Below, piece after piece: positions 907 through 18,553 of a DNA stretch of 64,000 nt. How positions within the stretch are numbered: position 1 is the first letter of the stretch; each line of letters starts with the position of its first letter. Below the pieces are notes generated by a model that made no database searches, was not told where the DNA came from, and worked only from the letters and a program-made list of their open reading frames with translations. Source of the DNA: Candidatus Omnitrophota bacterium (GTDB taxonomy: Bacteria > Omnitrophota > Gorgyraeia > DTHP01); the NCBI GenBank assembly GCA_023819145.1, contig JAMWCW010000008.1, positions 5,584 to 69,583 of the forward strand. The letters run 5' to 3'. The translations under genes were made by a program, and so were the position numbers.

Positions 907-920
907 ATAAGAGTTGAGGA

Positions 921-1649: not shown

Positions 1650-3417
1650 GATAAGGGTTTTTAAAAATAGATTTTGGTAGTTCAATTTTTTTTAATAGTT
1701 GATAATTGTATTGATTATTTTGTATCTCAAGAAAGAGTTCAAAAAATAACTTTTCTGCTTCAGAATACGAAATTTTAATATTGTAGTTCTTCTCTATAAC
1801 TTCATGTAAAAAAGTGTATAATTTATGTCTAAACAGAGGATTTCTTAATTCTCTTAAAGAATAAAAAGCATCGCTGTATTTTTCAATTGGCTCAGTAATT
1901 AAAATATAATCAAAATTATATGGCTGAAAAATTATTTTTGGACTTCCGTGACAATCTTTCTCTAAATTAAATAGGAATAATAATACTCGGGGGGTAAGCA
2001 TTTTGTCTTTAATTTTATGGGATATTTTTTCAAGTGTTGTTTCAAAAACATAAGGAATTCTCCATCGTTGTATAATTTTAAATCGCAATATATCTTCGAA
2101 TAAATCATCTGTAGCTAATCCGATAATGAATATCATTTTTTCATTATTTAGTTTCATGTCTTTTATAACTAAGTCTATAATATTATCTATATCCTCGTAA
2201 TCAAAACTAACGGCGTAAAGCATTCCCTCTCTGTGTGTTCTTTTATCAAAATCAATACTTGTAAAGATATATTTATCCTTTTTATAATTGATAATAAAAA
2301 ATTGAACCAGACAAAATAAAAAAAGACATAGAAATATTTTATGTTTATATAAGTTTAAGATTTTTCCCTTATAAATTTTTATGTATTGAGGAAGATTATT
2401 TAAAACATAAGCAATAACTATTCCTGAGGCAGGTAGTGACGGAAGAGTGTGTCTAGGAAAATCTTCGTAAGTGAAAAAAAGAAAATAAAAAAGAGGCGTG
2501 CATAACCAACTTAGAATAAATATCTTGTGTTTAGATTTTGTAATAGAATATAAAAAAAGACAGAAAAATAAAAGAATAGTTAATAGAGGATAAAGCTGAT
2601 ATTTCCAGAGGTTTAGACAAGAGAATTTGTATATATTATTTAACCTATTGATCGTAAATGATGTGTTTGCCGCATTCAACAGATAGAGTTGGCCAGGCAT
2701 ATGTTGGAGATACCACGGTAAAACAATAAGTAAGGGTAAGACAAAAAACAAAATACTAATTATTTTTATCTTCCCAAATTTATAAATAGCGTGAGAAGAA
2801 TATATTAAGAATGGGATAAAAAAATAAATAAGAAACGTTTGTTTATGAAGTAATCCAATTATAATGGTTAGGCTCGAAAAAAAAGAGTATATTTTTTTCT
2901 GAAAATATTCGGATTCAAGCAAAAAATAAAAAAATAAAGCTACTAAAGCTGTAATAGAAAAATCTAACATATACACACGGGAAAATCCAAAGATTCCCGG
3001 GTAAAAACTCACCAATAGAGCAGTGCCCATTCCGGTATATTCATTATCTAAGATTCCTCCAATTTTATATAACGCATAGATTAAGATAAAAAGATATAAG
3101 AGATTTGATAGAAGAGCTGTTTTAAGAGAAGGTCCTAAAAGGATAAAAAATGGTAAAGTAGCCATATGCCTCAAAAAAGGGTAAATCGAGTTAGTATCAA
3201 AAATTAAACATATTCTTTCTTTAAAAGACAATGACGGATTTCTTATAGCTTCGTATACTCTAAGCGAAGAAGAGTAGTATCCTAATTGATCCTCTACGAA
3301 AGGGGCATTGTCTTGAGAGATAATTATAAAATTGTTTATTGTATGGAAAATAAAAATGAGAATTAAGAAAAATTTAGTTCTATTTTTTTGCCAGAAAGAT
3401 AATATGGAAGTCATCAT
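1612..3417 (-). CDS. polytopic membrane glycosyltransferase, GT-C fold (PMT_2/ArnT-like) with C-terminal soluble domain
   Basis: About 12 predicted TM helices in the N-terminal 400 aa. First-loop acidic motif FVEDQLGYY resembles the catalytic DE/DD loop of ArnT/PMT/STT3. Confidence 0.5.
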   Translation of the reverse strand: MMTSILSFWQKNRTKFFLILIFIFHTINNFIIISQDNAPFVEDQLGYYSSSLRVYEAIRNPSLSFKERICLIFDTNSIYPFLRHMATLPFFILLGPSLKTALLSNLLYLFILIYALYKIGGILDNEYTGMGTALLVSFYPGIFGFSRVYMLDFSITALVALFFYFLLESEYFQKKIYSFFSSLTIIIGLLHKQTFLIYFFIPFLIYSSHAIYKFGKIKIISILFFVLPLLIVLPWYLQHMPGQLYLLNAANTSFTINRLNNIYKFSCLNLWKYQLYPLLTILLFFCLFLYSITKSKHKIFILSWLCTPLFYFLFFTYEDFPRHTLPSLPASGIVIAYVLNNLPQYIKIYKGKILNLYKHKIFLCLFLFCLVQFFIINYKKDKYIFTSIDFDKRTHREGMLYAVSFDYEDIDNIIDLVIKDMKLNNEKMIFIIGLATDDLFEDILRFKIIQRWRIPYVFETTLEKISHKIKDKMLTPRVLLFLFNLEKDCHGSPKIIFQPYNFDYILITEPIEKYSDAFYSLRELRNPLFRHKLYTFLHEVIEKNYNIKISYSEAEKLFFELFLEIQNNQYNYQLLKKIELPKSIFKNPYPKIYYLYKRINL

Positions 3418-4180
3418 TTTTTATTCTTATAAATTCAAATGAGGGATAGATATTTATTAGTTTTAAATCTGCTAAGTTGAGATACCTTTCTAATTCATAA
3501 GGAGAGTAAATTCTTAAAATATGTGTCTCTTTGTAGTTTTTAAGAAGTCCATCATTTTTGAATAATTTTAAATTATAATCAATTCTGCAAACTTGTTTTA
3601 ATTCATCAATTTTTATTTTTCCCTCGCGGATCAGTTTACTATTATTAAATTTTATTTCCTTAAAACTTTTTGGAGAAAAAGAATCGGTTGATTTCAAAGC
3701 ATTCCAGACTTCAAAAACAAAAAGACCATTTCTTTTTAGACTTGCATAGACATTTTTAAATAATTGCCTTAGCGATTTTATCTCGGTAATATAATTTATC
3801 ACTGCAAACAAAGAAATTACCACATCAATTTTTTTTCTCGGTCTGTAGTTTGTAATATCTTTTACTAAAAATTTTCCTCTTAAACCTGCTTTGTTTAATT
3901 TTTCTTTGGCAATTTTAACCATATCTTTGGAAATATCTATCCCTGTAACCCGATATCCTCTTTTGATCAATTCTAGGCTATGGTTTCCTGTCCCGCAACC
4001 TAAATCTAAGATATCTTTAGGTTTTTTATTGAGAAATTTTTTAAACAATTTTTCTAAAAAACCAGTCTCTTTTCTATATTCTTTATCTTTATAGATTAAA
4101 TCGTAAAAATAGGCATAGTCAGAATTAAAGCATTTACTTTGCATATTACCTATAATATAGTAAAATATCTTTAACTTCAA
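3380..4180 (-). CDS. class I SAM-dependent methyltransferase
   Basis: Motif I LDLGCGTGNHSLEL and post-I acidic VTGIDIS. The start probably lies downstream of the 38-nt overlap with the preceding gene. Confidence 0.75.
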   Translation of the reverse strand: MKLKIFYYIIGNMQSKCFNSDYAYFYDLIYKDKEYRKETGFLEKLFKKFLNKKPKDILDLGCGTGNHSLELIKRGYRVTGIDISKDMVKIAKEKLNKAGLRGKFLVKDITNYRPRKKIDVVISLFAVINYITEIKSLRQLFKNVYASLKRNGLFVFEVWNALKSTDSFSPKSFKEIKFNNSKLIREGKIKIDELKQVCRIDYNLKLFKNDGLLKNYKETHILRIYSPYELERYLNLADLKLINIYPSFEFIRIKNDDFHIIFLAKK

Positions 4181-5283
4181 TGAAGAAAATAGTTTTTATA
4201 ACCCGTGAAAGTTATGATTTAGCGGGAGCAAGGATTCGATGCTATAATTTCGCAAAAGAATTAAAAAAATATGGCATGGATACCGAAGTTTTATCTTTCG
4301 CTGACCACTTAGGAGCTAAATCAGGGAAAGAAGAAAATAAGTTAAGATTAAGAGATAAAATAAGATATAACCTAAAAGCCATTAAAAAACTCAAAAAAGA
4401 GAAAGATACTATATTTTTTATTAACCGCTTCCATTACCATACTTTCGCCTCCTGGTTTTTATCAATTTTAAATAGAAATAAAATAATTTTTGATTTAGAT
4501 GATTGGGAGATAAGAGAAAATCCGAAATATTACTTTGGCATTTTACCAAGTTCCAAGGCAGAGTTTTTAACTCGCAGATTGGCAAAAACTGCTTCTCTTT
4601 GTATTGGGGCAAGCAGATTTTTAGTAAATTATCTAATTCAATTTAATAAAAAAACATATTACATTCCTTCAGGAGTAAATACGGAAAAATTTAAGCCTCA
4701 AGAAGTTAACAGAGACAATTCTAAGATTATTTTTTCCTGGATAGGAACAATGCACAGGAAACCTGATATAGAAAATATAAAATTTGTTATTGATTGTTTC
4801 TTAGAATTGAGAAAGAAATATGAAAATATTTTTTTGGAAATTGCAGGAGATGGAATTTATTTTGGTGAGTTAGAAAAAATGATTAATAAAGTTGGAGAGA
4901 AAAATATTTCTCTAAAAGGTTGGATTGAACCAGACAAAATGCCTGATTATCTTTCTATAATTGATATCGGTTTAGTTCCTCTAATTCAGAATACAAAATT
5001 CAATTTAGCCAAAAGCCCAACTAAACTTTTTGAATATATGGCGATGGCAAAACCAGTGGTTTGTAGTAATATTGGTGAGTGTAGCTGTATTATTAAAGAT
5101 GGAGAAAATGGCTTCTTAGCCACTGATAAAGAAGAATTTATTAAAAAATTAGAAACCTTAGTGATAAACTATCAGATTAGAAAAGAGATAGGTGAGCAGG
5201 CCTTAAAGACTGTAAAGGAGAATTATTCTTTAGAAATTATCGGCAAAAAACTTTTCAATTTGGCAAAACAGGACAGTCCTTGA
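4180..5283 (+). CDS. glycosyltransferase, GT-B fold (GT4/GT1 family)
   Basis: C-terminal E-x7-E-type motif FEYMAMAKPVVCSNIGECSCIIKDGENGFL, typical of retaining GT4 enzymes. Confidence 0.75.
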   Translation: MKKIVFITRESYDLAGARIRCYNFAKELKKYGMDTEVLSFADHLGAKSGKEENKLRLRDKIRYNLKAIKKLKKEKDTIFFINRFHYHTFASWFLSILNRNKIIFDLDDWEIRENPKYYFGILPSSKAEFLTRRLAKTASLCIGASRFLVNYLIQFNKKTYYIPSGVNTEKFKPQEVNRDNSKIIFSWIGTMHRKPDIENIKFVIDCFLELRKKYENIFLEIAGDGIYFGELEKMINKVGEKNISLKGWIEPDKMPDYLSIIDIGLVPLIQNTKFNLAKSPTKLFEYMAMAKPVVCSNIGECSCIIKDGENGFLATDKEEFIKKLETLVINYQIRKEIGEQALKTVKENYSLEIIGKKLFNLAKQDSP

Positions 5284-5293
5284 TTGTAAAATT

Positions 5294-6763
5294 ATGAAGG
5301 TAGTTTTGGCTAATTCTATCGGTAGAGATAAAAATGGTTTTTATATAATCCATTCTCCTTCGCGCTGGTCTGAAGGAGTAAGGTCTTTAAATAATTGGTT
5401 TGCCTATTATCCCTGGGAGTTAGCTTATACCTCTTCACTTCTAAAAAGAGAAACAGACCATAAAATTAAATTGGTAGATGGTTGCTTGGAAAGACTGGAT
5501 TTAGAAAATTATTATAAGAAGTTATTACAGGAAAAGCCAGATTGGTTAATTATGGAATCCGCTACAAGGATGATTGAAGAAAATTTAGAATTGGCTGTAA
5601 AGATTAAGGAAAATTTAGGGACAAAGATTATTTTTGTTGGACAACATGCATCAGCCTTTCCTGAAGAATTGCTAAATAGAGGAGTAGATTATGTCTGTAT
5701 TGGTGAATATGAGTTGACTGTTTTAGAGTTATTACAAGGAAAAGACCCAAAAAATATCTTAGGGCTCTATCCTAATCCACGGAGACCTCTTTTAGATGTT
5801 AATTTTCTTCCATTCCCTGAGGATGAAGATGTTAGGCGTATCGATTACGGTATGCCTGGAGAGCCATCTTCAGAATATATAGAGATTCAGATGTATGCCT
5901 CAAGGGGTTGTCCGAGAAATTGTAATTTTTGTGTAGCAAGGAATATTTATTATGCTCAAGCTAACTGGCGTCCCAGAAAAATTGAGAATATAATTTCTGA
6001 AATAAAATATTTAAAAAATAGATATCATCAAATGGAGGGAATATTTTTTGATGAAGAGGTGCACAATGTAAGAAAAGATTTTGTTTTGAATTTATGCCAG
6101 GCAATAAAAGAGAATGGTTTAAATAAACTTCATTATGAGGCGATGTGCGATATCTGGTTTATGGATGAGGAGGTGCTTGAGGCAATGCGTGAAGCGGGAT
6201 ATTATAAGATTAGATTTGGCATTGAAACTGCAAATCAAGGTGTAGCGAAATCAATAAACAAAGAACTTAATTTGGAGAAATTGTTTTCTATATTGAAAAT
6301 AGCCAAAGGCATTGGTTTAAAAACCTACGGAACATTTATGTTTGGTGCCTGGGGTTCAACAAAAGAGAGCGATTTAGAGACTATAGAACTAATGAAGAGA
6401 TTAATTATTAATGGTCTTCTTGATAATACCCAGATTTCTATCTGCACACCTCAACCCGGAACAGAATTCTATAGATTGGTAAAGGAAAAAGGTTATTTGG
6501 TAGAAAATGATTATTCTAAATTTGATGGAGGGAATTTCAGTGTAGTAAGTTATCCAAAATATAAAAAGGAAGAAATTGAAGAAATAAAAAATTTAGCTTT
6601 TAAGATAAGAGACCATTTATATTTTGTCTATCGCTTTAAAACTGGCTTATGGCTTAATTGGCTAATTTATGTATGGAAAAAATACGGATTTTGGAAAACA
6701 ACCAAGAAAATCTTTATCCGTTTTTTGAAGGAACTTAATTTCTTATGGCAAAGATTTCAATAA
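5294..6763 (+). CDS. B12-binding domain radical SAM protein (class B)
   Basis: N-terminal Rossmann-like cobalamin-binding region, then CPRNCNFC (CX3CX2C) radical SAM cluster motif and a TIM-barrel-like remainder. Confidence 0.8.
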   Translation: MKVVLANSIGRDKNGFYIIHSPSRWSEGVRSLNNWFAYYPWELAYTSSLLKRETDHKIKLVDGCLERLDLENYYKKLLQEKPDWLIMESATRMIEENLELAVKIKENLGTKIIFVGQHASAFPEELLNRGVDYVCIGEYELTVLELLQGKDPKNILGLYPNPRRPLLDVNFLPFPEDEDVRRIDYGMPGEPSSEYIEIQMYASRGCPRNCNFCVARNIYYAQANWRPRKIENIISEIKYLKNRYHQMEGIFFDEEVHNVRKDFVLNLCQAIKENGLNKLHYEAMCDIWFMDEEVLEAMREAGYYKIRFGIETANQGVAKSINKELNLEKLFSILKIAKGIGLKTYGTFMFGAWGSTKESDLETIELMKRLIINGLLDNTQISICTPQPGTEFYRLVKEKGYLVENDYSKFDGGNFSVVSYPKYKKEEIEEIKNLAFKIRDHLYFVYRFKTGLWLNWLIYVWKKYGFWKTTKKIFIRFLKELNFLWQRFQ

Positions 6764-7683
6764 TCATTGTAACCTGTAACGCAATAAAAATAATTAAAGA
6801 TTGCTTTATTTCAATTTTTAGACAGGATTTTAAGGATTTTGAGGTGATTGTAGTGGACAATAACTCTTTAGATAGGACAAAAGAATTTATAAAAGATAAT
6901 TTTCCTCAAGTAAAATTGATTGAAAATAAAAAAAATTTAGGATTTTGTCGGGCAAATAATCAGGGAATTGCGATTTCTCAAGGAGAATATATCCTTACTT
7001 TAAATAGTGATGTAATTCTGGAAAAAAATTTCTTACGAGAATTGATAAATCAGGCAGAGAATAGTTCATCAATTGTTGGGATGTTTAGTCCAAAGATTCT
7101 TAAGATGGATAAAAAAACTATTGATTCTACAGGAATTATTTTGACGCGCATAAGGAGATTTTATAATCGAGGGGAGGGCGAAATTGATTTTGGTCAATAT
7201 GATGATAAAAGAGATATTTTTGGCCCGTCTGCAGCCTGTGCTTTATATAAAAAAGAAATGTTTGAGAAAATAAAAATTGGTGATAATGAATATTTTGATA
7301 ACGATTTCTTTTTCTTAGTTGAGGATGTAGATTTGGCATGGCGAGCAAATTTAATGGGTTTTAAAGGATTATTCATACCAAATGCTTTATGCTATCATTT
7401 AGGAAATAGTTTTGGTTTAAGTAGAAAAATGCGTCAATATCTTTCTTTTCGTAATCGCTTTCTAACGATGCTAAAGAATGAAAGTTGGGGTTATTTTTTA
7501 AAAAATTTAGTATTTTTATTATTATATGATATCCCAAGGTTTTTATATCTAATATTCACTAATTTACTTGTCTTTAAAGCAACCTTTGAGATAATTTATC
7601 TTCTGCATAAAATACTTAATAAACGCAGGCGCATAACTTTATTTACTCGATTAGGGATAATAAGTTTATATGAGATATTTTAA
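6745..7683 (+). CDS. GT2 family glycosyltransferase
   Basis: IIIVTCNA...VIVVDNNS..D N-terminal GT-A signature and DxD-like region. Confidence 0.7.
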   Translation: MAKISIIIVTCNAIKIIKDCFISIFRQDFKDFEVIVVDNNSLDRTKEFIKDNFPQVKLIENKKNLGFCRANNQGIAISQGEYILTLNSDVILEKNFLRELINQAENSSSIVGMFSPKILKMDKKTIDSTGIILTRIRRFYNRGEGEIDFGQYDDKRDIFGPSAACALYKKEMFEKIKIGDNEYFDNDFFFLVEDVDLAWRANLMGFKGLFIPNALCYHLGNSFGLSRKMRQYLSFRNRFLTMLKNESWGYFLKNLVFLLLYDIPRFLYLIFTNLLVFKATFEIIYLLHKILNKRRRITLFTRLGIISLYEIF

Positions 7684-8872
7684 ATCTTCAGAATTGTATT
7701 TAATTCGAAATGTTTTTCAGGCCGTAATTAATGGTGGGCATAAAAACGAAATAAAGCGTATTTTAGAAAATAAGCATATAAATTGGGAAATATTGGATAA
7801 ATTAATTATATATCATGAGATAGCCCCTGCGTTTTACTTGGCTATATCCTCGCTGTTTCATTTAATTCCTCAAAAGACAAAAACTCTGCTTGAGTGGTTT
7901 TATTTTAATACAGGGTTTAAGAACCATATAATATTTGAAGAATTTATAAAATTATACGATAAATTTAAAGAAAAGGGAATAGAAATATTACCCATTAAAG
8001 GAGTTGCCTTTTTATTGGATTTATATGATAGTTTTTATGTTAGGTCTATTGCTGATATAGATATTTTAATACGTAGAGAATATTATAGTAAAGGAGAGAG
8101 TGTTTTAATGAACTTGGGTTTTCAAAAAGACTTGCATGGTTTAGAGGAAGCTTATTGGAAGTTATATCAATGTCACATTTCATTTAGAGATAAAGAAAAA
8201 AACAATGATTTACCCATTATGGTAGATCTTCATTGGGCGCTTGATTTTAAAAGGAAAGGTAGATATGTTTTGGCCAATCTGTGGAAAAGGCTAAGAACAA
8301 TTAGGATCAAAAATAATAACAATATAAATTTATTATCTCCTGAGGATAATTTATTTTCTCTGGCTTTACATTTGAGAAGATTTGGTAATCCCTTTTCTTT
8401 TAAATATGTTATTGATACGGCCCTTTTATTTAGGAAATACGGTTCGGATTTTGATTGGGATTATTTTTTAAAAGAAGCTAAAAAAGAAGGTTTATGGTCG
8501 TGTAGTTATTTTCTAATTTTCTTAGCCAATTCTATTATTGAAATTCCTGAGCTTAAATATTCTGCAAAAAAAATTCCATTATCTAATTATAAGAGGAAAA
8601 TTATCGAAAAACTAATACTCAAAAAATTATGCTTTCTTAATGACTTGCTCGCACAAAATCTGAGAAAAAATTACCTTCAGAGCCATTTTTTATTTTATGA
8701 TGGTTTCTTTGAACCAATTTATTATATTTTAAACATTCCCTTAGAACAATTTGCAAAATTTTATAATTTAAAACCTTATAATCAAAAAACAAGAATCAAA
8801 TATAGCTTTCGTTTTCTATATATACCTACTAAATTATTATTTTTTAATTTTAATAATATCCCATTTGCATAA
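7670..8872 (+). CDS. nucleotidyltransferase-fold protein (PF14907-like, RiPP-associated)
   Basis: PIKGVAFLLDLYDSFYVRSIADIDILIRRE resembles the G..x..D.D NTase motif. It sits convergent to and 36 nt overlapping the PqqD-like gene. Confidence 0.45.
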   Translation: MRYFKSSELYLIRNVFQAVINGGHKNEIKRILENKHINWEILDKLIIYHEIAPAFYLAISSLFHLIPQKTKTLLEWFYFNTGFKNHIIFEEFIKLYDKFKEKGIEILPIKGVAFLLDLYDSFYVRSIADIDILIRREYYSKGESVLMNLGFQKDLHGLEEAYWKLYQCHISFRDKEKNNDLPIMVDLHWALDFKRKGRYVLANLWKRLRTIRIKNNNNINLLSPEDNLFSLALHLRRFGNPFSFKYVIDTALLFRKYGSDFDWDYFLKEAKKEGLWSCSYFLIFLANSIIEIPELKYSAKKIPLSNYKRKIIEKLILKKLCFLNDLLAQNLRKNYLQSHFLFYDGFFEPIYYILNIPLEQFAKFYNLKPYNQKTRIKYSFRFLYIPTKLLFFNFNNIPFA

Positions 8873-9139
8873 TTTTTCTATAAATTTTATTATATCTCTT
8901 TTCAAATTTTGAGTATAATTTATATTGAATTTCGTGCACATTTCTACAATAATTTCTTTTATGTTTTTCTTACCATCTATCTTATCCCAAATATATGCTC
9001 CAGTGCGATTAAGTTCATATATTTCATTAGTAGGTATATATAAAAGAACTAAAGTATCTTCTATTTTTCTCCAGGCAAGTTTGTTTTTATTCTTTTTAAA
9101 TATAAATTCAGGTTTAATTACTTTTTTGTTTTTTTCCAT
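8837..9139 (-). CDS. PqqD-family protein (RiPP recognition element / peptide chaperone)
   Basis: About 100 aa with LNRTGAYIWDKIDGKKNIKEIIVEMCTKF...IKFIEKL, a PqqD-like winged-helix pattern. The ORF track starts at GTG 9148 but ATG 9139 (MEKNKK) is the more likely start. It lies 1 nt after the precursor ORF stop. Confidence 0.7.
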   Translation of the reverse strand: MEKNKKVIKPEFIFKKNKNKLAWRKIEDTLVLLYIPTNEIYELNRTGAYIWDKIDGKKNIKEIIVEMCTKFNINYTQNLKRDIIKFIEKLCKWDIIKIKK

Positions 9140-9140
9140 G

Positions 9141-9290
9141 CTACTCACACACTATTATGTCAACACATTGCGGTGGAGAATATATACATTGAGTGTTTAC
9201 AATGCCTTTGGGAAATTTATTCATTTTTTTTATTGTGGGTTTCTCATATTTTCTTTTTTCTTGATTTTTAATTATGTTTTTCTTATCCAT
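9141..9290 (-). CDS. putative RiPP precursor peptide (49 aa, 3 Cys), not in the ORF track
   Basis: Hand translation of the minus strand gives MDKKNIIKNQEKRKYEKPTIKKMNKFPKGIVNTQCIYSPPQCVDIIVCE. The ATG is 4 nt after the rSAM/SPASM stop and a GGAGG lies 8 nt upstream. The stop is 1 nt before the PqqD ATG. Confidence 0.5.
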   Translation of the reverse strand: MDKKNIIKNQEKRKYEKPTIKKMNKFPKGIVNTQCIYSPPQCVDIIVCE

Positions 9291-9294
9291 TATT

Positions 9295-10308
9295 CTAACC
9301 TCCTTTTGCTAATAAATTTGTTAGTCTCTTTGCCTTTGAGAATATTTTATCGGGGCATTTTGTGGGATTACCGCTATAGAATTCAAAAACTGCAGGGCAC
9401 TTGAATATACAGATATTTCTATAATAGCATGTTTGACAATCTTTAAAGTCAGAAAATTTCAACTCTCGTAGTCTTGTGAATAAAGGAGAATTATACCATA
9501 TATCTGTAAGGGATTGCTTTTGGATATTCCCCGCTTCTTTATAATAAACTGCGCATGGAAAGACCCGTCCTTCTGCAGAGATATAACACCTTGTTATACC
9601 TGCTCCACAAGGAATAGGATTATTTTTAAAACGGATTAAGTGAGAACGGTCTAATTTGTATAATTTGATCTTCCAGCGATTGACTAAGGTAATTAAACCA
9701 TCGGGAGGGAGTTCGTATTCTAAAGTTTTCAAAGAAAATCTTCGGGTAGGAGCAATTGTAGAAGAGAATTTAAGATTTATATTTTTTCTATTTTTTTTTA
9801 ATTTATTATATATTTTTTTTATTTCTGGGATGCCTTTATAAGTGAGAGTATTAATAGGATAAATTAAGCCTATATTTGCTCCAATGTTAAGAAGATTTTC
9901 AATCCCCTTTAGAGCATTTTTAAATTTTCTCTTTCCAGTAAAATTCTCATAGGTTTCTTCATTGGCACCGTAAAGAGTAACTTTAAAATCAAATACACCG
10001 TGTTTAAATAGACGATGGGCAGTTGATTTATCAATTAAAGTTCCATTGGTAAGAAGCCCTACTTTAAATCCTTTTTTTCTTGCCTTTTGGATAAGATAGA
10101 ATATATCTTTTCTAATTAAAGGTTCTCCTCCGGTAAGGGTAATAGTCAGGGTTCCAAGATTAGTTAACTCGTCCAATAGGCAAAGATAGATTTGTTTGTC
10201 TAGTTCGATATTATCTTTTTCCAAAAAACAATATTTGCATTTTAAATTGCAGGAACGCGTTATTTCTATATGTATTGTTTCAATATAATTTCTTCTATTT
10301 TCTGCCAT
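9295..10308 (-). CDS. radical SAM/SPASM-domain peptide maturase
   Basis: N-terminal CNLKCKYC (CX3CX2C). C-terminal SPASM pattern PCGAG...C...C then CQTCYYRNICIFKC (CX2CX5CX3C), then KCP. Confidence 0.85.
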   Translation of the reverse strand: MAENRRNYIETIHIEITRSCNLKCKYCFLEKDNIELDKQIYLCLLDELTNLGTLTITLTGGEPLIRKDIFYLIQKARKKGFKVGLLTNGTLIDKSTAHRLFKHGVFDFKVTLYGANEETYENFTGKRKFKNALKGIENLLNIGANIGLIYPINTLTYKGIPEIKKIYNKLKKNRKNINLKFSSTIAPTRRFSLKTLEYELPPDGLITLVNRWKIKLYKLDRSHLIRFKNNPIPCGAGITRCYISAEGRVFPCAVYYKEAGNIQKQSLTDIWYNSPLFTRLRELKFSDFKDCQTCYYRNICIFKCPAVFEFYSGNPTKCPDKIFSKAKRLTNLLAKGG

Positions 10309-11201
10309 AGGTTTATTTGTTTTAAATTTGCTTTTTTTAATAATAAGGGATTGATTTTTAATATAACACTTTTTGCCTGAAGTGTCAATGTATATAAAAG
10401 TGCAATCACTCTTTTAGTCAAAAAGACCTTATTTACGGCTGCAAATCGTAGGGGAAAAATTTCACAAAGAAGTTTCAGCAAAGTTTCTTTTAGAGAAGGA
10501 ATAACAATTTGGAAATGGCAGATATCATCAGCTTTTTCCAAAAAAAGGATATGCGTTGGTTTTGAATTATTAATCCAATTACTAATTGCTAAATCCAACT
10601 TGAAATTTTGTTTTTTAAATCCACCTATGTAAGGTAATCCCGCAGTTATGATATGTTCTTTTTTAGCGATAAAAATAGAATCATCTCCTACTATTTTATA
10701 TCCCTTCTGAATAGCATTAATTAATAAAGTAGATTTACCAGCCCCACTTTTGCCGGTAGCAAGTACGGAAATTCTATCATTTGTCCAACTGGAGGCATGG
10801 ATTGAAAAGAATCCTTCTGCTTGAAGCAATGTTTTAAGCGTATTTTGGAAAATTGCATAATATCCGATAGGATTATTGAGATATTTGTGCATAGTTATAA
10901 ATGCTGAAAGATTTTCAAAATCTAAGAAATATTCATAAAATGGGGTATGATTAAAATGCATTTTTCGTGGAGAAAATTTACACTTTATTGATTTACTTGT
11001 TTTTGGTTTTCTTAGAAATATAATCTCTATCTCTTTTTGAGGGGTAGTTTTTGGTAAGTTAAGGTAGTTTTTTTTTAGATAGTTAATAAGTAAGGGGATG
11101 TCAGAGAGTAATTTAATTTTATAATTATAAAACTGTAAGGAGAAATTTTTAAGGCCTTCTTTTTTAATAAAAAAAATACTTCCCATTTTTTTTGAACACA
11201 A
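10266..11201 (-). CDS. HPr kinase-related (HprK C-terminal domain-like) P-loop kinase
   Basis: VLATGKSGAGKSTLLINAIQKGYKIVGDDSIF matches the HprK P-loop (G.SG.GKSE...rG..LV.DD). It overlaps the rSAM start by 43 nt. Confidence 0.65.
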   Translation of the reverse strand: MCSKKMGSIFFIKKEGLKNFSLQFYNYKIKLLSDIPLLINYLKKNYLNLPKTTPQKEIEIIFLRKPKTSKSIKCKFSPRKMHFNHTPFYEYFLDFENLSAFITMHKYLNNPIGYYAIFQNTLKTLLQAEGFFSIHASSWTNDRISVLATGKSGAGKSTLLINAIQKGYKIVGDDSIFIAKKEHIITAGLPYIGGFKKQNFKLDLAISNWINNSKPTHILFLEKADDICHFQIVIPSLKETLLKLLCEIFPLRFAAVNKVFLTKRVIALLYTLTLQAKSVILKINPLLLKKANLKQINLWQKIEEIILKQYI

Positions 11202-11309
11202 ACTGTATTGCAGATTTTAATATTTGTTAGTAGAATATTATATAATAGATTTTAAAATAATTACATCGATTTTAGAAAATTTAAATATGTAAAAACAAAA
11301 TAAAAAATA

Positions 11310-12782
11310 ATGAGAATTAAGGTTATTCTTCTAATAGTTTTATTATTAGCTTTGGGGATAAGGATTTACTGTTTAGGAAAGTGGGAACTCTGGTATGATG
11401 AGATTTTAGCGATTAAGACTGCGCAGAATTTTAGATTAGCGAATAATTCTTATCTGTATTATACTCTTCTTTATTATTGGATAAAATTTTTTAAATTCTC
11501 TGAATCCACTGTTCGTATTCCGTCTTTAATTTTCAGTATGTTATCTATAGCCTCACTTTATTTGTTGGGAAAAAATTTATTTAATGAGAAAATCGCTTTG
11601 TTCTCTACCGGGTTATTGGCTTTTAATCCATTTCATATCTGGTATTCTCAGGAGGCAAGACCTTATAGTGCATTGGTTTTGTGTGGTATTTTGTCATCAT
11701 ATTTTTTATTTAGAGGGTTAAAGGAAAAAAAGATTTTATTTTTATTTCCCTTCACTTTTTTATCTGTTGTTGGAATATATCTCCACTATTTTTATATTAC
11801 CTTTTTGCTAGTATGTTTATTTATTGTTTTATTATTTTTGTTTGTTAAAAAACAAAAATATTATGTTTATTGGCTTACAATAAGTATATTAATTATTTTT
11901 TTGTTCCTTTCTCCTTGGCTACCGCGGTTTCTATTAAATCTGTGCTGTATTATAGATGGATTTTGGATACCTGTGCCTAGTTTTAAATCTTTGTTTATAA
12001 CTTTAGAAAATTTTAATTTAGGTTATAATGCTCCTAATTGGGCGTATAAATATTCATTATTTTTGACTCTTATTTTATTTCTCTCCGCCATAAATTTTCT
12101 TAGAGAAAAAAAAGAATTACAGAGCAACTTTTGGTTATGTTTGATGTTATTTATTTTACCCATTTTATTTGCCTTTTTCTTTTCTAAATTTTTATTTTCC
12201 ATCTATCTTGATCGTGCCTTAATGATTTCTTCTCCTTATTATTATTTAATCTTAGGGATAGGTTTAGAGTCCATAGGGAGGAAGAAGTTAAAATATTTTG
12301 TAAAATTATCTATATTTTTTTTGTTAGTTCAGAGTCTATCTTTTTATTACCAAGGTATCACACATTCGTCTCTTACACACCATACAGGTGCTTACGTTAA
12401 AAAGCCTATAAGGCCTGTAATTAATTATTTAGAAAGAAGAGTGAATAAAAATGATATAATATGTATTATAAATACCCATGTATTTCTACAATTTAATTTT
12501 TATAAACAAAATAAAGGGATATTATGTTTTTATGTTTTTTCTCCAGAAATATGGGATACTAATTGGAACAGACCTCATTCTGAAGGAAATAACTGGATTC
12601 CTGTAAATAGATTAATAGGATTTGATAGTGATAGAATATGGATGCTTTTTTCTGATTGTCCGAGAAGCGGCAAGTTAGATGAAAATTCCCAAAAAGTTAA
12701 GTCATGGATGGATAAAAACTACCTGACTATATTCGAACAGTGGCTAGATGGGATTTTGCTAAAATTATATGAAAAAAAGTAG
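11310..12782 (+). CDS. GT-C fold membrane glycosyltransferase (PMT_2/ArnT family)
   Basis: Polytopic membrane protein. First-loop motif LWYDEILAIK and FNPFHIWYSQEARPYS resemble ArnT/PMT_2. Confidence 0.65.
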   Translation: MRIKVILLIVLLLALGIRIYCLGKWELWYDEILAIKTAQNFRLANNSYLYYTLLYYWIKFFKFSESTVRIPSLIFSMLSIASLYLLGKNLFNEKIALFSTGLLAFNPFHIWYSQEARPYSALVLCGILSSYFLFRGLKEKKILFLFPFTFLSVVGIYLHYFYITFLLVCLFIVLLFLFVKKQKYYVYWLTISILIIFLFLSPWLPRFLLNLCCIIDGFWIPVPSFKSLFITLENFNLGYNAPNWAYKYSLFLTLILFLSAINFLREKKELQSNFWLCLMLFILPILFAFFFSKFLFSIYLDRALMISSPYYYLILGIGLESIGRKKLKYFVKLSIFFLLVQSLSFYYQGITHSSLTHHTGAYVKKPIRPVINYLERRVNKNDIICIINTHVFLQFNFYKQNKGILCFYVFSPEIWDTNWNRPHSEGNNWIPVNRLIGFDSDRIWMLFSDCPRSGKLDENSQKVKSWMDKNYLTIFEQWLDGILLKLYEKK

Positions 12783-13872
12783 GTTATTATTTATAGTCAT
12801 TTTGTTGGCTTCGTCTCTTTGGTTTTCTTCTCCAAAGTGTATGGTAGACAACTTAGATTTGTTTAACAGAGAAGAGATCTCTACAGCCAAGATTTATTAT
12901 TTTGTAGAAATACCGAGGACAAAATATGGCAGATACTCAGGGAAAGGAGAGATTATTTTTAAAAGAGATTTCGGGGTTATAAATAATATGGTCAATAATT
13001 ATTCTGAGAAAAAAGATGAAGAAAGAATAAAAATAATTGAAAATTTTATTACAGGAATTAATTTAAATTATAACTATTTAACTAATAAAGTAGAAAAAAG
13101 AGACTACCATAATTGGTTTGGAATAAAATGGTATTTCGGTAAGGATTTACATTTTAATATTTGGGACATTTTTGCTATTTCAAGAAGCAATTTATTATCT
13201 GTTTATAACCACGAAGGGATAGAGAAAAAAGGTAATAAAGAGATCTCTATAATTTCTGGGATTTTGGCTAAATATCCTTTTTGGGGGAATAAATGCAAAA
13301 TCTGGATAGATAAAGAGTATAATTTTATTCATAAATTTATTATTTATAGTGAAAAAGATGAGCCGATTTTTACCTTAGAGGTTACGGAGGTGGAAGTAAA
13401 TCCGGAAATAGACGATAAAGAATTTAGCACAGAGATTCCTCCGGATTTTACTGTGGTAGATATAACCGAACAATTTGCCCAGCAATATCGGATTCTTGTG
13501 CAATTGTATGATTTTTATAATCGGATTAAGGAATTAGAAAAAAAGTTAGAAGTTTTACGAAAAGAAAATGAGGAATTAAAAGAGATGTCTAAGGAAAAGG
13601 AAGTTGAGAAGAGAATTGCTATAACCAAGGAGCCAGTTGTTCTATTCATAGATAGAGAAAATAAATTTGTGGTTATGGGAGGAAGAGAAGATGATTTAGT
13701 GGTGGGAGAAATATTTGAGGTTTATCGGGGAAGTAAACTGTTGGGTAAGCTTGAGATTACGCGGGTTTATCAAGATTTGGCAGTGGCAGAGCCAGTTATG
13801 GAGGGGCTAATGGATGTTATTAAAGAGGGCGATAGTTTGGTAAGAGCGAGTTCAGAAAGTTTTTTCCCTTGA
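12769..13872 (+). CDS. hypothetical secreted protein with coiled-coil segment
   Basis: N-terminal signal-like hydrophobic segment and a KE-rich coiled-coil (LEKKLEVLRKENEELKEMSKEKEVEKR). Confidence 0.4.
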   Translation: MKKSRLLFIVILLASSLWFSSPKCMVDNLDLFNREEISTAKIYYFVEIPRTKYGRYSGKGEIIFKRDFGVINNMVNNYSEKKDEERIKIIENFITGINLNYNYLTNKVEKRDYHNWFGIKWYFGKDLHFNIWDIFAISRSNLLSVYNHEGIEKKGNKEISIISGILAKYPFWGNKCKIWIDKEYNFIHKFIIYSEKDEPIFTLEVTEVEVNPEIDDKEFSTEIPPDFTVVDITEQFAQQYRILVQLYDFYNRIKELEKKLEVLRKENEELKEMSKEKEVEKRIAITKEPVVLFIDRENKFVVMGGREDDLVVGEIFEVYRGSKLLGKLEITRVYQDLAVAEPVMEGLMDVIKEGDSLVRASSESFFP

Positions 13873-13950
13873 CAAATAATTATAATGTGATATAGTGAGT
13901 GTGTAAAGGTTGAAAGTAGGAGGAAATTGGAAGTAGTTGGACATCTTTAA

Positions 13951-13989
13951 ATCGTAAGGTTTTTTTATTTTCACCTTACGATTTTTTTA
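13951..13989 (+). terminator. rho-independent terminator
   Basis: ATCGTAAGGT / ACCTTACGAT 10-bp stem, 12-nt loop, followed by TTTTTTT. Confidence 0.55.
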
Positions 13990-14027
13990 TAGATGTAATT
14001 TAAATAGAAAGGAGGTGAATAAAGTTG

Positions 14028-14225
14028 ATGAAAGGTAAAGTGAAGTGGTTTTCTAATCAGAAGGGTTATGGATTTATTACCCTTGACAGCGGTGAAGATG
14101 TGTTTGTGCATCACAGCGCCATCAAAGGAGAAGGTTACAAAACTTTGAATGAAGGACAAGAAGTACAGTTAGAGGTAATCCAAGGACCCAAAGGGAAACA
14201 AGCTGCTAATGTAGTGAAGTTATAG
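14028..14225 (+). CDS. cspA: cold-shock protein (CspA family)
   Basis: [16 protein letters not shown]...[12 protein letters not shown]1/RNP2 motifs; GGAGGTG RBS. The track's TTG at 14025 is an alternative start. Confidence 0.9.
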
Positions 14226-14291
14226 AATTAGCAGTGGAATAGAGTTTTTCTTAAAGGAAGAGTCTATTTCCCTAAAAGTAGAAAACCGATA

Positions 14292-14337
14292 AAAGGGACA
14301 ATTATTAGATTTGTTCTAAAGTTGTCCCTTTTTTTAT
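14292..14337 (+). terminator. rho-independent terminator
   Basis: AAAGGGACAA...TTGTCCCTTT stem followed by a T-run. Confidence 0.5.
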
Positions 14338-14379
14338 TATATTATTCCCATATATTTCTGGAAATCGAGAGATTAATCT

Positions 14380-14388
14380 GGTATAATG
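14380..14388 (+). promoter_or_regulatory. extended -10 promoter (TGgTATAAT)
   Basis: TG-n-TATAAT located 75 nt upstream of the CBS gene. Confidence 0.35.
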
Positions 14389-14462
14389 TTATTACTTATA
14401 TTTAAATTCGTAGTTATCGGCGCAATTTTAACTTAAGAATTTACTTTTATAAAAGGAGAGTA

Positions 14463-14906
14463 GTGATGAAAGTAAAAGAGGTAATGTCGAAAGAGGTAAA
14501 GAGTCTTTCTCCGGAGATGAGTATCAGGGAGGCTTTAAATCTCCTTCTTCAGATGGGAATTAGTGGGTTGCCGGTAATTGATGCAGAGGAAAAACTTGTG
14601 GGGATGTTTACTGAGAAAGAGGTTTTAAAGGTAGTTTTACCGAGTTATTGGGAGAGAGTGGGAAAATTTGTTTATGATGACAACCCAAAAGTGATAAGAA
14701 AAAAGATAGAGGAACTAAAAAATCATAAAGTTGCAGAAGTTATGCGTAGAGAAGTTATTTCCGTGAATGAAGATACCGCCTTATGTGAAGTTGCCCGTAT
14801 CATGCTTACCGAGAAGGTAAGACGCATCCCTGTTTTGGACAAAGATAAAAAAGTGGTGGGAATAATTGCCAGAGAGGATATAGTAAAAGCGTTTGTTAAT
14901 GAGTAA
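14463..14906 (+). CDS. CBS-domain pair protein
   Basis: Two CBS repeats (VKEVMSKEVKSLSPEMSIREAL..., VAEVMRREVISVNEDTALCEVARIM...RRIPVLD). Confidence 0.8.
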   Translation: MMKVKEVMSKEVKSLSPEMSIREALNLLLQMGISGLPVIDAEEKLVGMFTEKEVLKVVLPSYWERVGKFVYDDNPKVIRKKIEELKNHKVAEVMRREVISVNEDTALCEVARIMLTEKVRRIPVLDKDKKVVGIIAREDIVKAFVNE

Positions 14907-16284
14907 TAAAATTTTCTTAAAATTTCTGATTCTTTTTATTACAGCTATCGCTTGTGGGTTCTTATCCATAAGTATAGGAATGAATACCCATCAGGCTTTA
15001 AGCGTTTCTATTTTTTCGGCTTCGGTTATGGGAACATTATTGTTCTGGGATTTTCGTTTAGCCATCGCTTTCTTAGGTATCGCTATTCTCCTCATGACGA
15101 GAACCGTGGATTTAGAAAATGTTATAAAATTTGCTTCTTTAGAAGTGATACTCTTTTTAGTAGGAATGATGGTTTTAATTGGGTTATTGAAAGAAGTTGG
15201 ATTTTTTGCTTGGTTGATAGGTTTAATTATCCGCATAAAAAAACTTACAGCGAAGAAATTTGTGGTTGTACTGTGTTTAATGTCAGCGATTTTAGCCTGT
15301 GCAGTGGATGAGGTTACCTCTATTATTTTTATGAGTGCTCTTGTTTTAGAGATTTGTGATTATTTTGAAGTTTTAGCTACCCCCTATATCATTATGTGTG
15401 TTCTGGCTACGAATATTGGTTCTTCAGGAACTGTTCTGGGTAATCCCATTGGAATTTTAATTGCAGCAAAGGGCGGTCTTACTTTTGAGGATTTTATTTT
15501 TAGAGCATTTCCTTTGATGTTCTTTTGTCTGCTTCTAACCATCTCTATATTCTTTGTTATTTTTAAAAAACCGATTAAGGAATTGGATAAGAAAATAAAA
15601 GAATTTGGATACAATGAGATACTCATTAAGCTTATTTCTGTTCCTCCGGAAAAACAATTAAGACTAGGTTTGGGTATATTTGGGGTTACTCTTTTTTTTA
15701 TTGGTTTACATCACCGTTTAGAATTATTATGGAATTTAGAAACAAATACCATACTTTTGGTGATTCCTTTGATTTCTGCTGGTTTTGTAATGGTTTGGAA
15801 ACACAGAAAGGCTAAAGAATATATTGAGAAAGAAGTGGATTGGTGGACTCTTTTGTTTTTCATGCTTTTATTTGCTAAAGCAGGAACATTAAAATATACG
15901 GGAGCAACGGATGTTTTGGCAAAATATCTTGTGCAGTTTGCAGGTAAAAATCCTAAAGTTTTGGTTACAAATTTACTTTGGACCTCCTGTATTGGTTCAA
16001 GTATTTTGGACAATGTTGTTTTGGTAGCGGCATTTATTCCCATTGTGCAGAGTTTCCATTCTTTTGGCTTTGTAACGAATTCTTTCTGGTGGGCACTACT
16101 TTTTGGAGGTTGTTTTGGAGGAAATATTACGATGATTGGCTCAACTGCAAATATTGTTGCCTTGGGACTTTTGGAGAAAGAGAAAGGGATAAAGATAAAA
16201 TTCTTCCGCTGGTTAGGGATAGGTTTAATAATTGGTGTAATAACAACTCTTTTTGCTTGGCTTTATCTGATAATAACAAGTTAA
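14893..16284 (+). CDS. anion/cation permease, ArsB/NhaD superfamily (CitMHS/SLC13-like)
   Basis: About 12 TM helices in an internally duplicated architecture; it overlaps the upstream CBS gene. Confidence 0.5.
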   Translation: MLMSNKIFLKFLILFITAIACGFLSISIGMNTHQALSVSIFSASVMGTLLFWDFRLAIAFLGIAILLMTRTVDLENVIKFASLEVILFLVGMMVLIGLLKEVGFFAWLIGLIIRIKKLTAKKFVVVLCLMSAILACAVDEVTSIIFMSALVLEICDYFEVLATPYIIMCVLATNIGSSGTVLGNPIGILIAAKGGLTFEDFIFRAFPLMFFCLLLTISIFFVIFKKPIKELDKKIKEFGYNEILIKLISVPPEKQLRLGLGIFGVTLFFIGLHHRLELLWNLETNTILLVIPLISAGFVMVWKHRKAKEYIEKEVDWWTLLFFMLLFAKAGTLKYTGATDVLAKYLVQFAGKNPKVLVTNLLWTSCIGSSILDNVVLVAAFIPIVQSFHSFGFVTNSFWWALLFGGCFGGNITMIGSTANIVALGLLEKEKGIKIKFFRWLGIGLIIGVITTLFAWLYLIITS

Positions 16285-16300
16285 CTTAAGAAGATGCAAT

Positions 16301-16329
16301 TTGACAAAGACATTGCGTATATCTATAAT
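16301..16329 (+). promoter_or_regulatory. sigma70-type promoter for bcd-etfBA
   Basis: TTGACA, 17 nt spacer, TATAAT. Confidence 0.5.
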
Positions 16330-16372
16330 ATCTAAAATAATGTTAAATTAAAAGTAAGGGAAAGGAGAAAAG

Positions 16373-17527
16373 ATGCTAAATTATCTTTTAACAGAAGAAC
16401 AGGTGATGATTCGTGATTTAGCAAGGAAGATTGCGGAAGAAAAGATAAAACCAGTAGCGGCAAAATATGATGAGAGCGAAGAATTCCCTTGGGAAATAAT
16501 GAAAATTTTAGCCTCAAGTGATTTGTTTGGAGTTTATATTCCCCAGGAGTATGGAGGTTTAGGAGGAGGGGTTATGGAATTGGCCATTGTTACTGAAGAG
16601 CTCTCACGTGCCTGCGGGGGAATTGCGGTTTGTTTTGCAGCTACGGGGTTAGGAACTTATCCCATAATTTTATTTGGTAATGACCAGCAGAAGAAGAAAT
16701 ATCTTCCGGACATTGCCAGCGGTAAGAAGTTGGCGGCTTTTGCGCTCACCGAAGCAAATGCCGGCTCAGATGCTTCAGCAATTCAGACTACTGCAGAGAA
16801 AAAAGGAGATTATTATATTTTAAACGGAACAAAGCAATGGATTACCAACGGAGGAGAAGCGGAGGTTTATACGGTGATAGCGATGACCGATAGAAGCAAA
16901 GGGGCAAGGGGTGCTACTGCCTTTATCTTAGAAAAAGGGATGGAAGGATTTAGTTTTGGAAAAAAGGAAAAAAAGATGGGGATTCGCGCTTCCGCAACAA
17001 GAGAACTTGTTTTTAATAACTGTAAGGTGCCTAAAGAAAATGTCTTAGGTAAGGAGGGGATGGGTTTTATTGTGGCTATGAAAACATTTGATATGTCCAG
17101 GCCGGGGGTAGCAGCACAGGCAGTGGGTATTGCCCAAGGAGCATTAGATTTGACCATAGAATATGCCAAGCAGAGAAAACAATTTGGACAGACAATATCC
17201 AGTTTTCAGGGAATTCAATTTATGCTTGCAGAAATGGCTACTTATGTTGAGGCAGCACGCGCCTTGATTTATGCGGTTTGCCGGGCAGTGGATAAAGGAG
17301 AAAAAAACATTGCCAAAGAGTCCGCCATGGCAAAATTATTTGCTTCAGATGTATGTATGAAAGTTACTACCGATTGTGTGCAGATTTTTGGTGGGTATGG
17401 CTATATGCGCGACTACCCCATAGAAAAATATATGCGCGATGCCAAAATTACCCAGATTTACGAAGGAACAAACCAGATTATGCGTAATGTTATTGCTTTG
17501 AACCTCATTAAGGAAACGCTAAAATAA
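16373..17527 (+). CDS. bcd: acyl-CoA dehydrogenase (butyryl-CoA dehydrogenase-like)
   Basis: Full-length ACAD pattern (EEQ..IRD..R, GGLG, catalytic C-terminal YEGT...IMR). Confidence 0.9.
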   Translation: MLNYLLTEEQVMIRDLARKIAEEKIKPVAAKYDESEEFPWEIMKILASSDLFGVYIPQEYGGLGGGVMELAIVTEELSRACGGIAVCFAATGLGTYPIILFGNDQQKKKYLPDIASGKKLAAFALTEANAGSDASAIQTTAEKKGDYYILNGTKQWITNGGEAEVYTVIAMTDRSKGARGATAFILEKGMEGFSFGKKEKKMGIRASATRELVFNNCKVPKENVLGKEGMGFIVAMKTFDMSRPGVAAQAVGIAQGALDLTIEYAKQRKQFGQTISSFQGIQFMLAEMATYVEAARALIYAVCRAVDKGEKNIAKESAMAKLFASDVCMKVTTDCVQIFGGYGYMRDYPIEKYMRDAKITQIYEGTNQIMRNVIALNLIKETLK

Positions 17528-17570
17528 TTAGTCAAATTGTTAAATTGGCTAAAGAACGAAGTTCCATTAC

Positions 17571-17604: not shown

Positions 17605-17606
17605 CA

Positions 17607-18545: not shown

Positions 18546-18553
18546 ATAAAAAG

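Follow-up and report, generated by a model that had tools for sequence, protein, structure and literature searches.

The four coupled genes between positions 8837 and 11201, on the minus strand of a 64,000-nt stretch of Candidatus Omnitrophota DNA (GCA_023819145.1, contig JAMWCW010000008.1; this whole stretch is referred to as the window, and coordinates are positions within it), encode an HprK-like P-loop protein, a radical S-adenosylmethionine (SAM)/SPASM enzyme, a 49-residue peptide and a stand-alone PqqD-family protein. From their sequences it is probable (roughly 60%) that they form a biosynthetic cluster for a ribosomally synthesised peptide with post-translational modifications (RiPP), the modification chemistry of which we infer. 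The cluster type is an RiPP recognition element (RRE)-dependent radical SAM/SPASM RiPP, from the Omnitrophica branch of a large family for which no experimental study was found. Domains were called by comparing Pfam profiles with their gathering thresholds and NCBIfam models with their curated cut-offs, and related loci are numbered L001, L002, L003 and so on. The features of the locus are as follows:

10266-11186, minus strand: HprK-like P-loop protein, 306 aa (ATG at 11186; an alternative TTG start at 11201 gives an open reading frame (ORF) of 10266-11201)
9295-10308, minus strand: radical SAM/SPASM enzyme, 337 aa (Pfam Radical_SAM, 77.0 bits against a threshold of 29.5; SPASM, 47.7 against 21.5)
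9299-9305, minus strand: Shine-Dalgarno site AAGGAGG, 8 nt upstream of the ATG of the precursor gene
9141-9290, minus strand: precursor peptide gene, 49 aa, MDKKNIIKNQEKRKYEKPTIKKMNKFPKGIVNTQCIYSPPQCVDIIVCE, conserved in L001 and triplicate in L003
9231-9251, minus strand: putative recognition motif in the leader, K14-Y-E-K-P-T-I20 (lasso-type Y-x-x-P-x-L/I)
9144-9188, minus strand: predicted core C35-IYSPPQ-C42-VDIIV-C48-E, from alignment and Cys spacing
8837-9139, minus strand: stand-alone PqqD-family RRE, 100 aa (Pfam PqqD, 54.4 bits against a threshold of 23.4)
7670-8872, plus strand: PF14907 nucleotidyltransferase-fold protein, 400 aa (NTP_transf_5, 140.3 bits against a threshold of 31.2, profile positions 2-246 of 249), convergent with the operon

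The coordinates and junctions given in the initial annotation all held on re-reading of the sequence. The ORF of the HprK-like protein, which ends at 10266, overlaps the radical-SAM gene (ATG at 10308) by 43 nt; between the radical-SAM stop codon (TAG, 9295-9297) and the peptide ATG at 9290 lie four nucleotides (AATA); and a single nucleotide separates the peptide stop codon (TAG, 9141-9143) from the PqqD ATG at 9139. Over 36 nt, the 3' end of the PqqD gene is shared with the PF14907 gene. L001 and L003 both show this order of genes, small ORF included, and the arrangement is therefore more than chance. L001, a 5.6-kb Logan contig, encodes in order a kinase-like protein, a radical-SAM protein, a 50-aa ORF and a PqqD protein (64%, 69% and 63% identity to the window for the kinase-like, radical-SAM and PqqD proteins, respectively). 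L003 was found by an exhaustive HMMER search with the kinase-like protein and is more distant (36-38% for the kinase-like protein, 42-43% for the radical-SAM protein, 41% for PqqD and 44% for the PF14907 protein). Here the kinase-like gene overlaps the radical-SAM gene by 28 nt, three tandem precursor genes lie between the radical-SAM gene and PqqD, and a convergent PF14907 gene follows directly after PqqD. L003 has a GC content of 45%, compared with 29% in the window, and its flanks encode secretins, an autotransporter and a MerR-family protein. Both relatives come from Omnitrophica-type assemblies.

The subfamily is rare. The exhaustive search yielded only two full-length relatives of the kinase-like protein among 1.84 billion cluster representatives. 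Alignments of the kinase-like protein found nothing in 185,579 species-representative genomes and the JGI metagenomes, and those of the radical-SAM protein found nothing above 33% full-length identity in the same species-representative genomes and metagenomes. Since these scans gave no further member, the subfamily is known only from the window, L001 and L003. One phmmer match to the kinase-like protein (P0089) was a 1046-aa repeat protein and was rejected as spurious. A search for the exact sequence of the window radical-SAM protein returned no contig.

The 49-aa ORF, read as the gene of a Cys peptide in the initial annotation, is kept beside the radical SAM and PqqD genes in both relatives. 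The peptide of L001 is 56% identical to that of the window and its gene is likewise preceded by AAGGAGG, while GGAGGAG precedes the second and third of the three L003 precursors (2/3). The ratio of nonsynonymous to synonymous substitution rates (dN/dS) is approximately 0.2 (Nei-Gojobori; small number of sites). Taken together, the ribosome-binding site, the L001 homologue, this ratio and the three tandem L003 homologues indicate that the ORF is a genuine precursor gene. The window peptide was absent from a collection of 5.8 billion proteins, and therefore appears to be unannotated in the public record. In an alignment of the five subfamily precursors Y15, P18 and I20 are invariant and define the leader motif K-(K/N)-Y-(E/Q)-x-P-x-I, which the basic leader of the window peptide carries as K-Y-E-K-P-T-I. 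The core has the form C-x2-S-P-x2-C-x5/6-(V)C-x1-2 in the subfamily and C-x2-S-P-x2-C-x5-C over approximately 15 residues in the window, where Y15 and C35 are 20 residues apart. Two to three Cys are kept in each of the five precursors, and core sequences vary between species as well as among the three tandem L003 paralogues. In the window and L001 peptides a Thr occupies position -2 before the first Cys (V-N-T-Q|C and V-S-T-Q|C), reminiscent of the penultimate Thr of lasso leaders.

From the structure of TbiB1 with its leader, lasso B1 proteins are said to recognise a Y-x-x-P-x-L motif. TbiB1 (5v1u) was also the best solved relative of the window PqqD protein (E = 5e-6), and with the Pfam score above threshold this upheld the assignment of the PqqD protein as an RRE. 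The NCBIfam models lasso_PqqD_Bac (40.4 against a cut-off of 80), PQQ_PqqD (41.1 against 46) and ScmD (28.7 against 100; E = 1.2e-6) all scored below their cut-offs. The proposal that a lasso-type RRE and a kinase are here wired to a SPASM enzyme was reinforced both by TbiB1 as the best PqqD relative and by the Y-x-x-P-x-I leader. As to the SPASM enzyme itself, the two Cys motifs claimed for it, CX3CX2C and CX2CX5CX3C, are present as C20-x3-C24-x2-C27 and C291-x2-C294-x5-C300-x3-C304, and the eight Cys of the SPASM region are invariant in the three subfamily members (3/3). The enzyme has no N-terminal RRE domain. Its closest solved relatives in the PDB were PqqE and, second, SkfB. Its NCBIfam scores lay well under the cut-offs for PapB (82.1 against 340), StsB (114.9 against 625), PqqE (93.4 against 381), MftC (114 against 265), ScmE (114.8 against 400) and ScmF (79.6 against 400), with WgkB (123 bits) among the top matches; no NCBIfam model reached its curated cut-off for any protein of the cluster.

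Sequence comparison indicates that the kinase-like protein is homologous to HprK-like proteins. Its five best phmmer matches in the PDB were all HprK/P chains, with the P-loop and the DD motif aligned; in the alignment GKSGAGKS and VGDD are matched by 1jb1 and 2qmh, HprK/P chains of L. casei. The Walker A motif reads G145-K-S-G-A-G-K-S152, and H130 and D168-D169 align with HprK/P active-site motifs. When the three subfamily proteins were aligned by hhalign with 24 HprK-like neighbours of radical-SAM genes, homology was assigned with 98.3% probability over residues 116-284 (149 columns). The P-loop and one Asp are kept in all three subfamily members. Its activity as a kinase is putative.

The same partners are found together far beyond the subfamily. 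Using the radical-SAM alignment, 80 loci at up to 33% identity were recovered from the species genomes, all of their ORFs were called and profile hidden Markov models (HMMs) were built in this analysis; with the window and L001-L003 these make 84 sources. An HprK-like gene stands beside the radical SAM/SPASM gene in 67 of the 84, window included (64/80 loci), a sample biased by the selection of loci on motifs that the window radical-SAM protein also has. In very many cases the HprK-like gene immediately precedes, and overlaps, the radical-SAM gene. PqqD is present in 57/84 sources, an S26 signal-peptidase-like gene in 16/84 and PF14907 in 14/84 (12 of the 80 distant loci). The three best blastp matches to the radical-SAM protein outside the subfamily (L004, L005 and L006), which outrank all independent protein-search matches, all carry an HprK-like gene; together with the hhalign probability of 98.3% for the kinase-like domain, this argues that the count is no artefact of sampling. 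The hosts include Acutalibacteraceae, Oscillospiraceae, Lachnospiraceae, Clostridium hominis, Dorea and Anaerolineae, as well as Desulfocapsaceae, Oligoflexia, Halobacteriovorax, Verrucomicrobia, Sericytochromatia and Izemoplasmatales. The window would thus be placed by its sequence as a rare Omnitrophica branch of a widespread HprK-like/radical SAM-SPASM/PqqD architecture. Four contigs (L037, L046, L058 and L065) carry two HprK-like/radical-SAM/PqqD sets each, and in L046 each set has its own precursor.

A regular-expression search identified 48 credible precursors in 40 sources that share the leader motif, and a hand-curated set of 43, overlapping the 48, was aligned. These 43 begin with M-K-K-x-[YWF]-x-x-P-x-hydrophobic. 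The first Cys stands at a fixed spacing in every one of them, 20 residues after the leader aromatic in 25 and 19 residues in seven, and is preceded by the consensus E-A-I-A-(A/S)-(A/N/G), with 2-5 Cys after the leader motif. Ala occupies position -3 before the first Cys in 23/43 and Ala, Asn, Gly or Ser position -1 in 30/43. As small residues at -3 and -1 fit the type I signal peptidase rule, the S26 peptidase, which follows the HprK-like gene in L008, L011, L018, L054, L067, L079 and others and is absent from the subfamily of the window, would where encoded cut just before the first Cys. A C-terminal Ser is found in 26 of the 48 precursors, the Clostridium hominis locus L054 being one example, whereas the rate among the remaining small ORFs of these regions is 11% (binomial p = 4e-13). 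Ten representative precursors matched no curated NCBIfam family, showing only faint resemblance of the leader to StsA and lasso precursors.

We propose the following sequence of events. The PqqD protein would bind the leader, as lasso B1 binds Y-x-x-P-x-L, and present the core to the radical SAM/SPASM enzyme, which lacks an RRE of its own. Cross-linking of the core by the latter, most likely into Cys-to-carbon thioethers of the sacti- or ranthipeptide type, would draw on a 5'-deoxyadenosyl radical together with two auxiliary Fe-S clusters. The translationally coupled HprK-like protein would phosphorylate a hydroxyl of the precursor; the candidate site in most relatives elsewhere is the C-terminal Ser, the enrichment of which in the wider family would fit well with HprK-like phosphorylation, and in the subfamily the conserved Ser of C-x-x-S-P. 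The PF14907 protein, where present, may decorate the phosphate as PsmN does in pseudomycoidin.

Several observations weigh against this scheme and are set out here together with the alternatives on which they bear. The Pfam and NCBIfam scans identified no protease, transporter or immunity gene in the operon. Heme-pathway enzymes of the AhbD/NirJ type are, at 27-30% identity, about as near to the radical-SAM enzyme as peptide maturases are, and three matches in that range occur in mixed contexts (P0008 within an operon for siroheme/heme, P0010 next to genes for UbiA and GT2, P0006 without partner genes), so that similarity of the radical-SAM protein alone is no guide to function at this level. 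At L002:4156-5751 (GCA_044344285.1) a radical-SAM gene 30% identical to that of the window is followed by a 51-aa ORF (5244-5399) and then by PqqD. This ORF has a K-Y-F-K-P-H-L leader and no Cys, and no HprK-like gene is present; L002 may represent a different chemistry with the same leader/RRE logic. Given this Cys-free, leader-bearing peptide and the closeness to AhbD/NirJ, thioether formation is not assured. The 8-kb L002 contig also carries three further radical-SAM genes and two GT1/GT4 glycosyltransferase genes. It is conceivable, though rather unlikely in our judgement, that the enzyme modifies the peptide in another way, for instance by a cross-link of the C-C or C-O type, by epimerisation or by oxidising Cys or Ser, and that the Cys serve in disulfides or as metal ligands. 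The reactions of SPASM enzymes are diverse, the high rank of WgkB, which makes a cross-link of the C-C/C-N type, points in this direction, and so does L002; against it, Cys are the most conserved feature of the core, with 2-3 in all five subfamily precursors and the first at its fixed spacing in 43/43 aligned precursors. One L003 paralogue lacks both the first Cys and the C-x-x-S-P segment. A lanthipeptide-like route, by elimination of phospho-Ser and addition of Cys, was considered and rejected: the cluster has no gene for a lyase or cyclase, and the Ser in question is missing from one L003 paralogue.

For the proposed phosphorylation, the difficulties lie with the kinase-like protein and with its site. 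Hpr_kinase_C (PF07475) scored 27.6 bits against a threshold of 33.3, matching residues 144-184, TIGR00679 (HprK/P) scored 28.7 against 240 with the match confined to residues ~144-186, and HprK-related kinases A and B (TIGR04352 and TIGR04355) scored 18.9 and 22.8 bits against a cut-off of 200, so that the protein lies under every curated threshold. Thus, among the profile matches, those for radical SAM/SPASM, PqqD and PF14907 exceed their thresholds but that for the kinase does not, and the name "HprK-related kinase" used in the initial annotation falls short at Pfam level while the homology behind it is borne out by the HprK/P chains and by hhalign. Neither outcome that the initial annotation had named as refuting it came about, be it failure of the four proteins at their HMMs or loss of the small ORF beside radical-SAM/PqqD pairs in related genomes. 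The N-terminal ~115 residues are subfamily-specific and matched nothing, the L003 homologue has D-S in place of D-D (second Asp to Ser), and an AlphaFold2 model from a two-sequence alignment had a predicted local distance difference test (pLDDT) score of 30 and was discarded. The subfamily precursors end in E (window), Y (L001) and G, G and R (L003). It is this lack of a C-terminal Ser that leads us to propose the Ser of C-x-x-S-P, and given the L003 paralogue without that segment and the D-S of the L003 kinase-like protein, this phosphosite is the weakest step of the scheme.

The PF14907 gene bears on the same question. In the window it is the last gene of a GT1, B12-radical-SAM and GT2 operon with overlapping starts, and its co-transcription with glycosyltransferase genes, like the lack of any PF14907 similarity in L001, the closest relative, in which the convergent gene after PqqD is the C-terminus of a GT2 homologue, goes against a role in the module. 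It is nevertheless 44% identical to the convergent L003 homologue. Its place in the gene combination, as first annotated, is thus retained in that it recurs and is convergent in L003, but given its absence from L001 it is not obligatory, and it would be a recurrent but accessory member. An unlikely explanation of these data is that the HprK-like protein is an ATP-binding scaffold or chaperone, or a phosphorylase-type enzyme, acting as an obligatory partner of the radical-SAM protein, with the window PF14907 protein belonging to a glycan operon. It would account for an HprK-like gene that adjoins the radical-SAM gene, often overlapping it, in 67/84 sources regardless of whether the precursor has a C-terminal Ser, for conservation confined to the P-loop domain, for the loss of the second Asp in P0088, and for the overlap of PF14907 with the GT2 gene and its absence from L001. 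It is countered by the conservation of Walker A, of the His before it and of one or both Asp in the catalytic motif of HprK, by the C-terminal Ser enrichment, which agrees with the known specificity of lasso HprK-like kinases, and by the recurrence of PF14907 in 14/84 sources and its convergent position in L003.

Very unlikely, finally, is an intracellular peptide-derived redox cofactor resembling pyrroloquinoline quinone (PQQ) or mycofactocin, with the radical-SAM and PqqD proteins acting as PqqE/PqqD or MftC/MftB: a stand-alone PqqD with a SPASM enzyme is exactly the arrangement of those pathways, PqqE is the best solved relative, PQQ_PqqD scores close to its cut-off (41.1 against 46) and the operon has no transporter, protease or immunity gene, but PqqE and MftC score 93 against 381 and 114 against 265, the core has neither the E-x3-Y of PqqA nor the C-terminal VY of MftA, its diversity across species and L003 paralogues is what diversifying natural products, unlike a cofactor, typically show, and a conserved cognate dehydrogenase is missing from the L001 and L003 neighbourhoods.

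The surroundings of the locus were compared with those of its relatives. The embedding in a glycosyltransferase island, which had been counted as part of the system, was not sustained: the module is intact in L003 among unrelated secretin and autotransporter genes, so that the island is incidental. Positions 1-14000 of the window have a GC content of 27-31%, compared with 30-41% in the rest (16000-64000), and contain glycosyltransferase, methyltransferase and B12-radical-SAM genes as well as the peptide operon; this first 14 kb may be an acquired or surface-polysaccharide-type island. The B12-binding radical-SAM protein (5294-6763, plus strand) lies between the GT1 and GT2 genes, co-directional with PF14907, and is unrelated to the SPASM enzyme; its best NCBIfam match was HpnJ (163 bits against a cut-off of 578). 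A PMT_2-family glycosyltransferase and a 367-aa protein (weak DUF2092 match, predicted coiled coil) are encoded divergently at 11310-13872 (plus strand), and are syntenic in L001:2-2561 (minus strand; 68% and 56% identity) and absent near L003, the synteny with L001 probably reflecting shared ancestry with no functional link. The flanks of the L003 module (9200-10000 and 14000-14330) contain repeated short sequences, with similar spurious ORFs such as '...LSFRAKRGIWYSPP...' on each side; these repeats may be elements that bracket the module. In the window, a scan of the region for consensus promoters and terminators performed no better than on shuffled sequence. The best promoter-like site (10360-10388, minus strand; TTGACA, 17 nt, TATATT, TG extension, 11/12 matches, in a region where the number of sites equals the shuffled expectation) falls within the 3'-terminal part of the kinase-like gene, with the radical-SAM ATG ~50 nt downstream, and could allow transcription independent of the kinase. 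A plus-strand ORF of 159 aa (8925-9404) runs antisense to the genes for PqqD and the precursor; its sequence is hydrophobic with low complexity, and in all likelihood the ORF is an AT-rich artefact.

The value of the locus lies less in itself than in the family that it exposes. Tentatively, and with somewhat less confidence than in the cluster as such, that family may be an unrecognised RiPP class spread over many phyla, in which a lasso-type toolkit serves a SPASM cross-linker and the products would carry Cys cross-links as well as phosphate, with phospho-glycosylation or nucleotidylation in some cases, the site of phosphorylation in Omnitrophica having moved from the C-terminal Ser to the internal C-x-x-S-P. 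If the chemistry proposed here holds, phosphorylation and decoration of the phosphate would be a module portable across RiPP core enzymes through a common leader and RRE, not one confined to lasso peptides; that HprK-like phosphorylation is a tailoring module common to lasso and radical-SAM RiPPs is a prediction open to test. Many such clusters occur in gut Clostridia (Acutalibacteraceae, Oscillospiraceae, Lachnospiraceae and Clostridium hominis), for which no described product was found, and one heterologous expression experiment could open a sizeable family. To our knowledge, Omnitrophica is a candidate phylum with almost no known natural products, and its version of the cluster is compact (four coupled genes and a core of ~15 residues) and would be a convenient test case.

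The initial annotation had recognised no described RiPP class in this combination. That stands in so far as no description was found, but the combination is no one-off: it is widespread across phyla, and one curated cassette, SynChlorMet, names the same three partners. No paper on an HprK-like/radical-SAM RiPP was found in the openly searchable literature, subscription-only papers lying outside the search, and queries there for HPr kinase with RiPP, for ranthipeptides and for radical SAM RiPPs (RaS-RiPPs) returned only lasso or unrelated papers. The RRE-Finder paper does not mention kinases, and neither a lasso review nor a review of RaS-RiPPs in the microbiome yielded an account of an HprK-like/radical-SAM RiPP. 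The architecture appears never to have been characterised.

Of the systems that are known, the clusters of phosphorylated and phosphoglycosylated lasso peptides (paeninodin, PadeK; pseudomycoidin, PsmK/PsmN) share with the window a stand-alone PqqD-type RRE, a Y-x-x-P-x-L/I leader, an HprK-like kinase gene and a PF14907-type nucleotidyltransferase gene. In a review (PMC8498205), HprK homologues of lasso clusters are described as phosphorylating the linear precursor at its C-terminal Ser, to which phosphate, in pseudomycoidin, a protein with a nucleotidyltransferase fold adds a hexose. The window differs in being defined by a radical SAM/SPASM protein and in a precursor without a C-terminal Ser. 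Neither an asparagine-synthetase-like lasso cyclase (C) nor a transglutaminase-like leader protease (B2) was found by Pfam and NCBIfam in the genes from 502 to 19756, nor in L001 or L003, and the cluster is therefore outside the lasso class.

Sacti- and ranthipeptide clusters (SkfB, AlbA, CteB/SCIFF, PapB, StsB) have in common with the window a SPASM maturase with CX3CX2C and the full set of SPASM Cys, a short precursor with several Cys near its C-terminus, and dependence on an RRE; their RRE is an N-terminal domain, whereas that of the window is a separate protein. No curated maturase model of these classes (PapB, StsB, AlbA, SkfB, SCIFF maturase) reached its cut-off for the window enzyme, and we know of no sacti- or ranthipeptide cluster with kinase-like and nucleotidyltransferase genes, nor did the literature searches bring one to light.

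The SynChlorMet cassette (ScmC, ScmD, ScmE and ScmF in NCBIfam/TIGRFAMs; curated but experimentally uncharacterised) was the only curated entry found to list these three partners. ScmD is PqqD-like, ScmE and ScmF are radical SAM/SPASM proteins, and ScmC was matched by the HprK-like proteins of L054 and L067, while the window kinase-like protein gave no ScmC match at E <= 0.01. SynChlorMet names two radical-SAM genes against one in the window, the window scores are all below its cut-offs, and no paper on it was found in the openly searchable literature. The PQQ (PqqA/D/E) and mycofactocin (MftA/B/C) pathways likewise combine a stand-alone PqqD-family chaperone, a SPASM radical-SAM enzyme and a small precursor; they differ in their core motif, and the window has no downstream pathway genes and an added kinase-like protein. 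The window cluster belongs neither to PQQ, mycofactocin nor SynChlorMet, nor, with all scores far below the cut-offs, to any curated maturase family. Judged by its components, it would work most like a hybrid, in which a SPASM system of the sacti- or ranthipeptide type is combined with the leader, RRE, kinase and nucleotidyltransferase known from phosphorylated lasso peptides.

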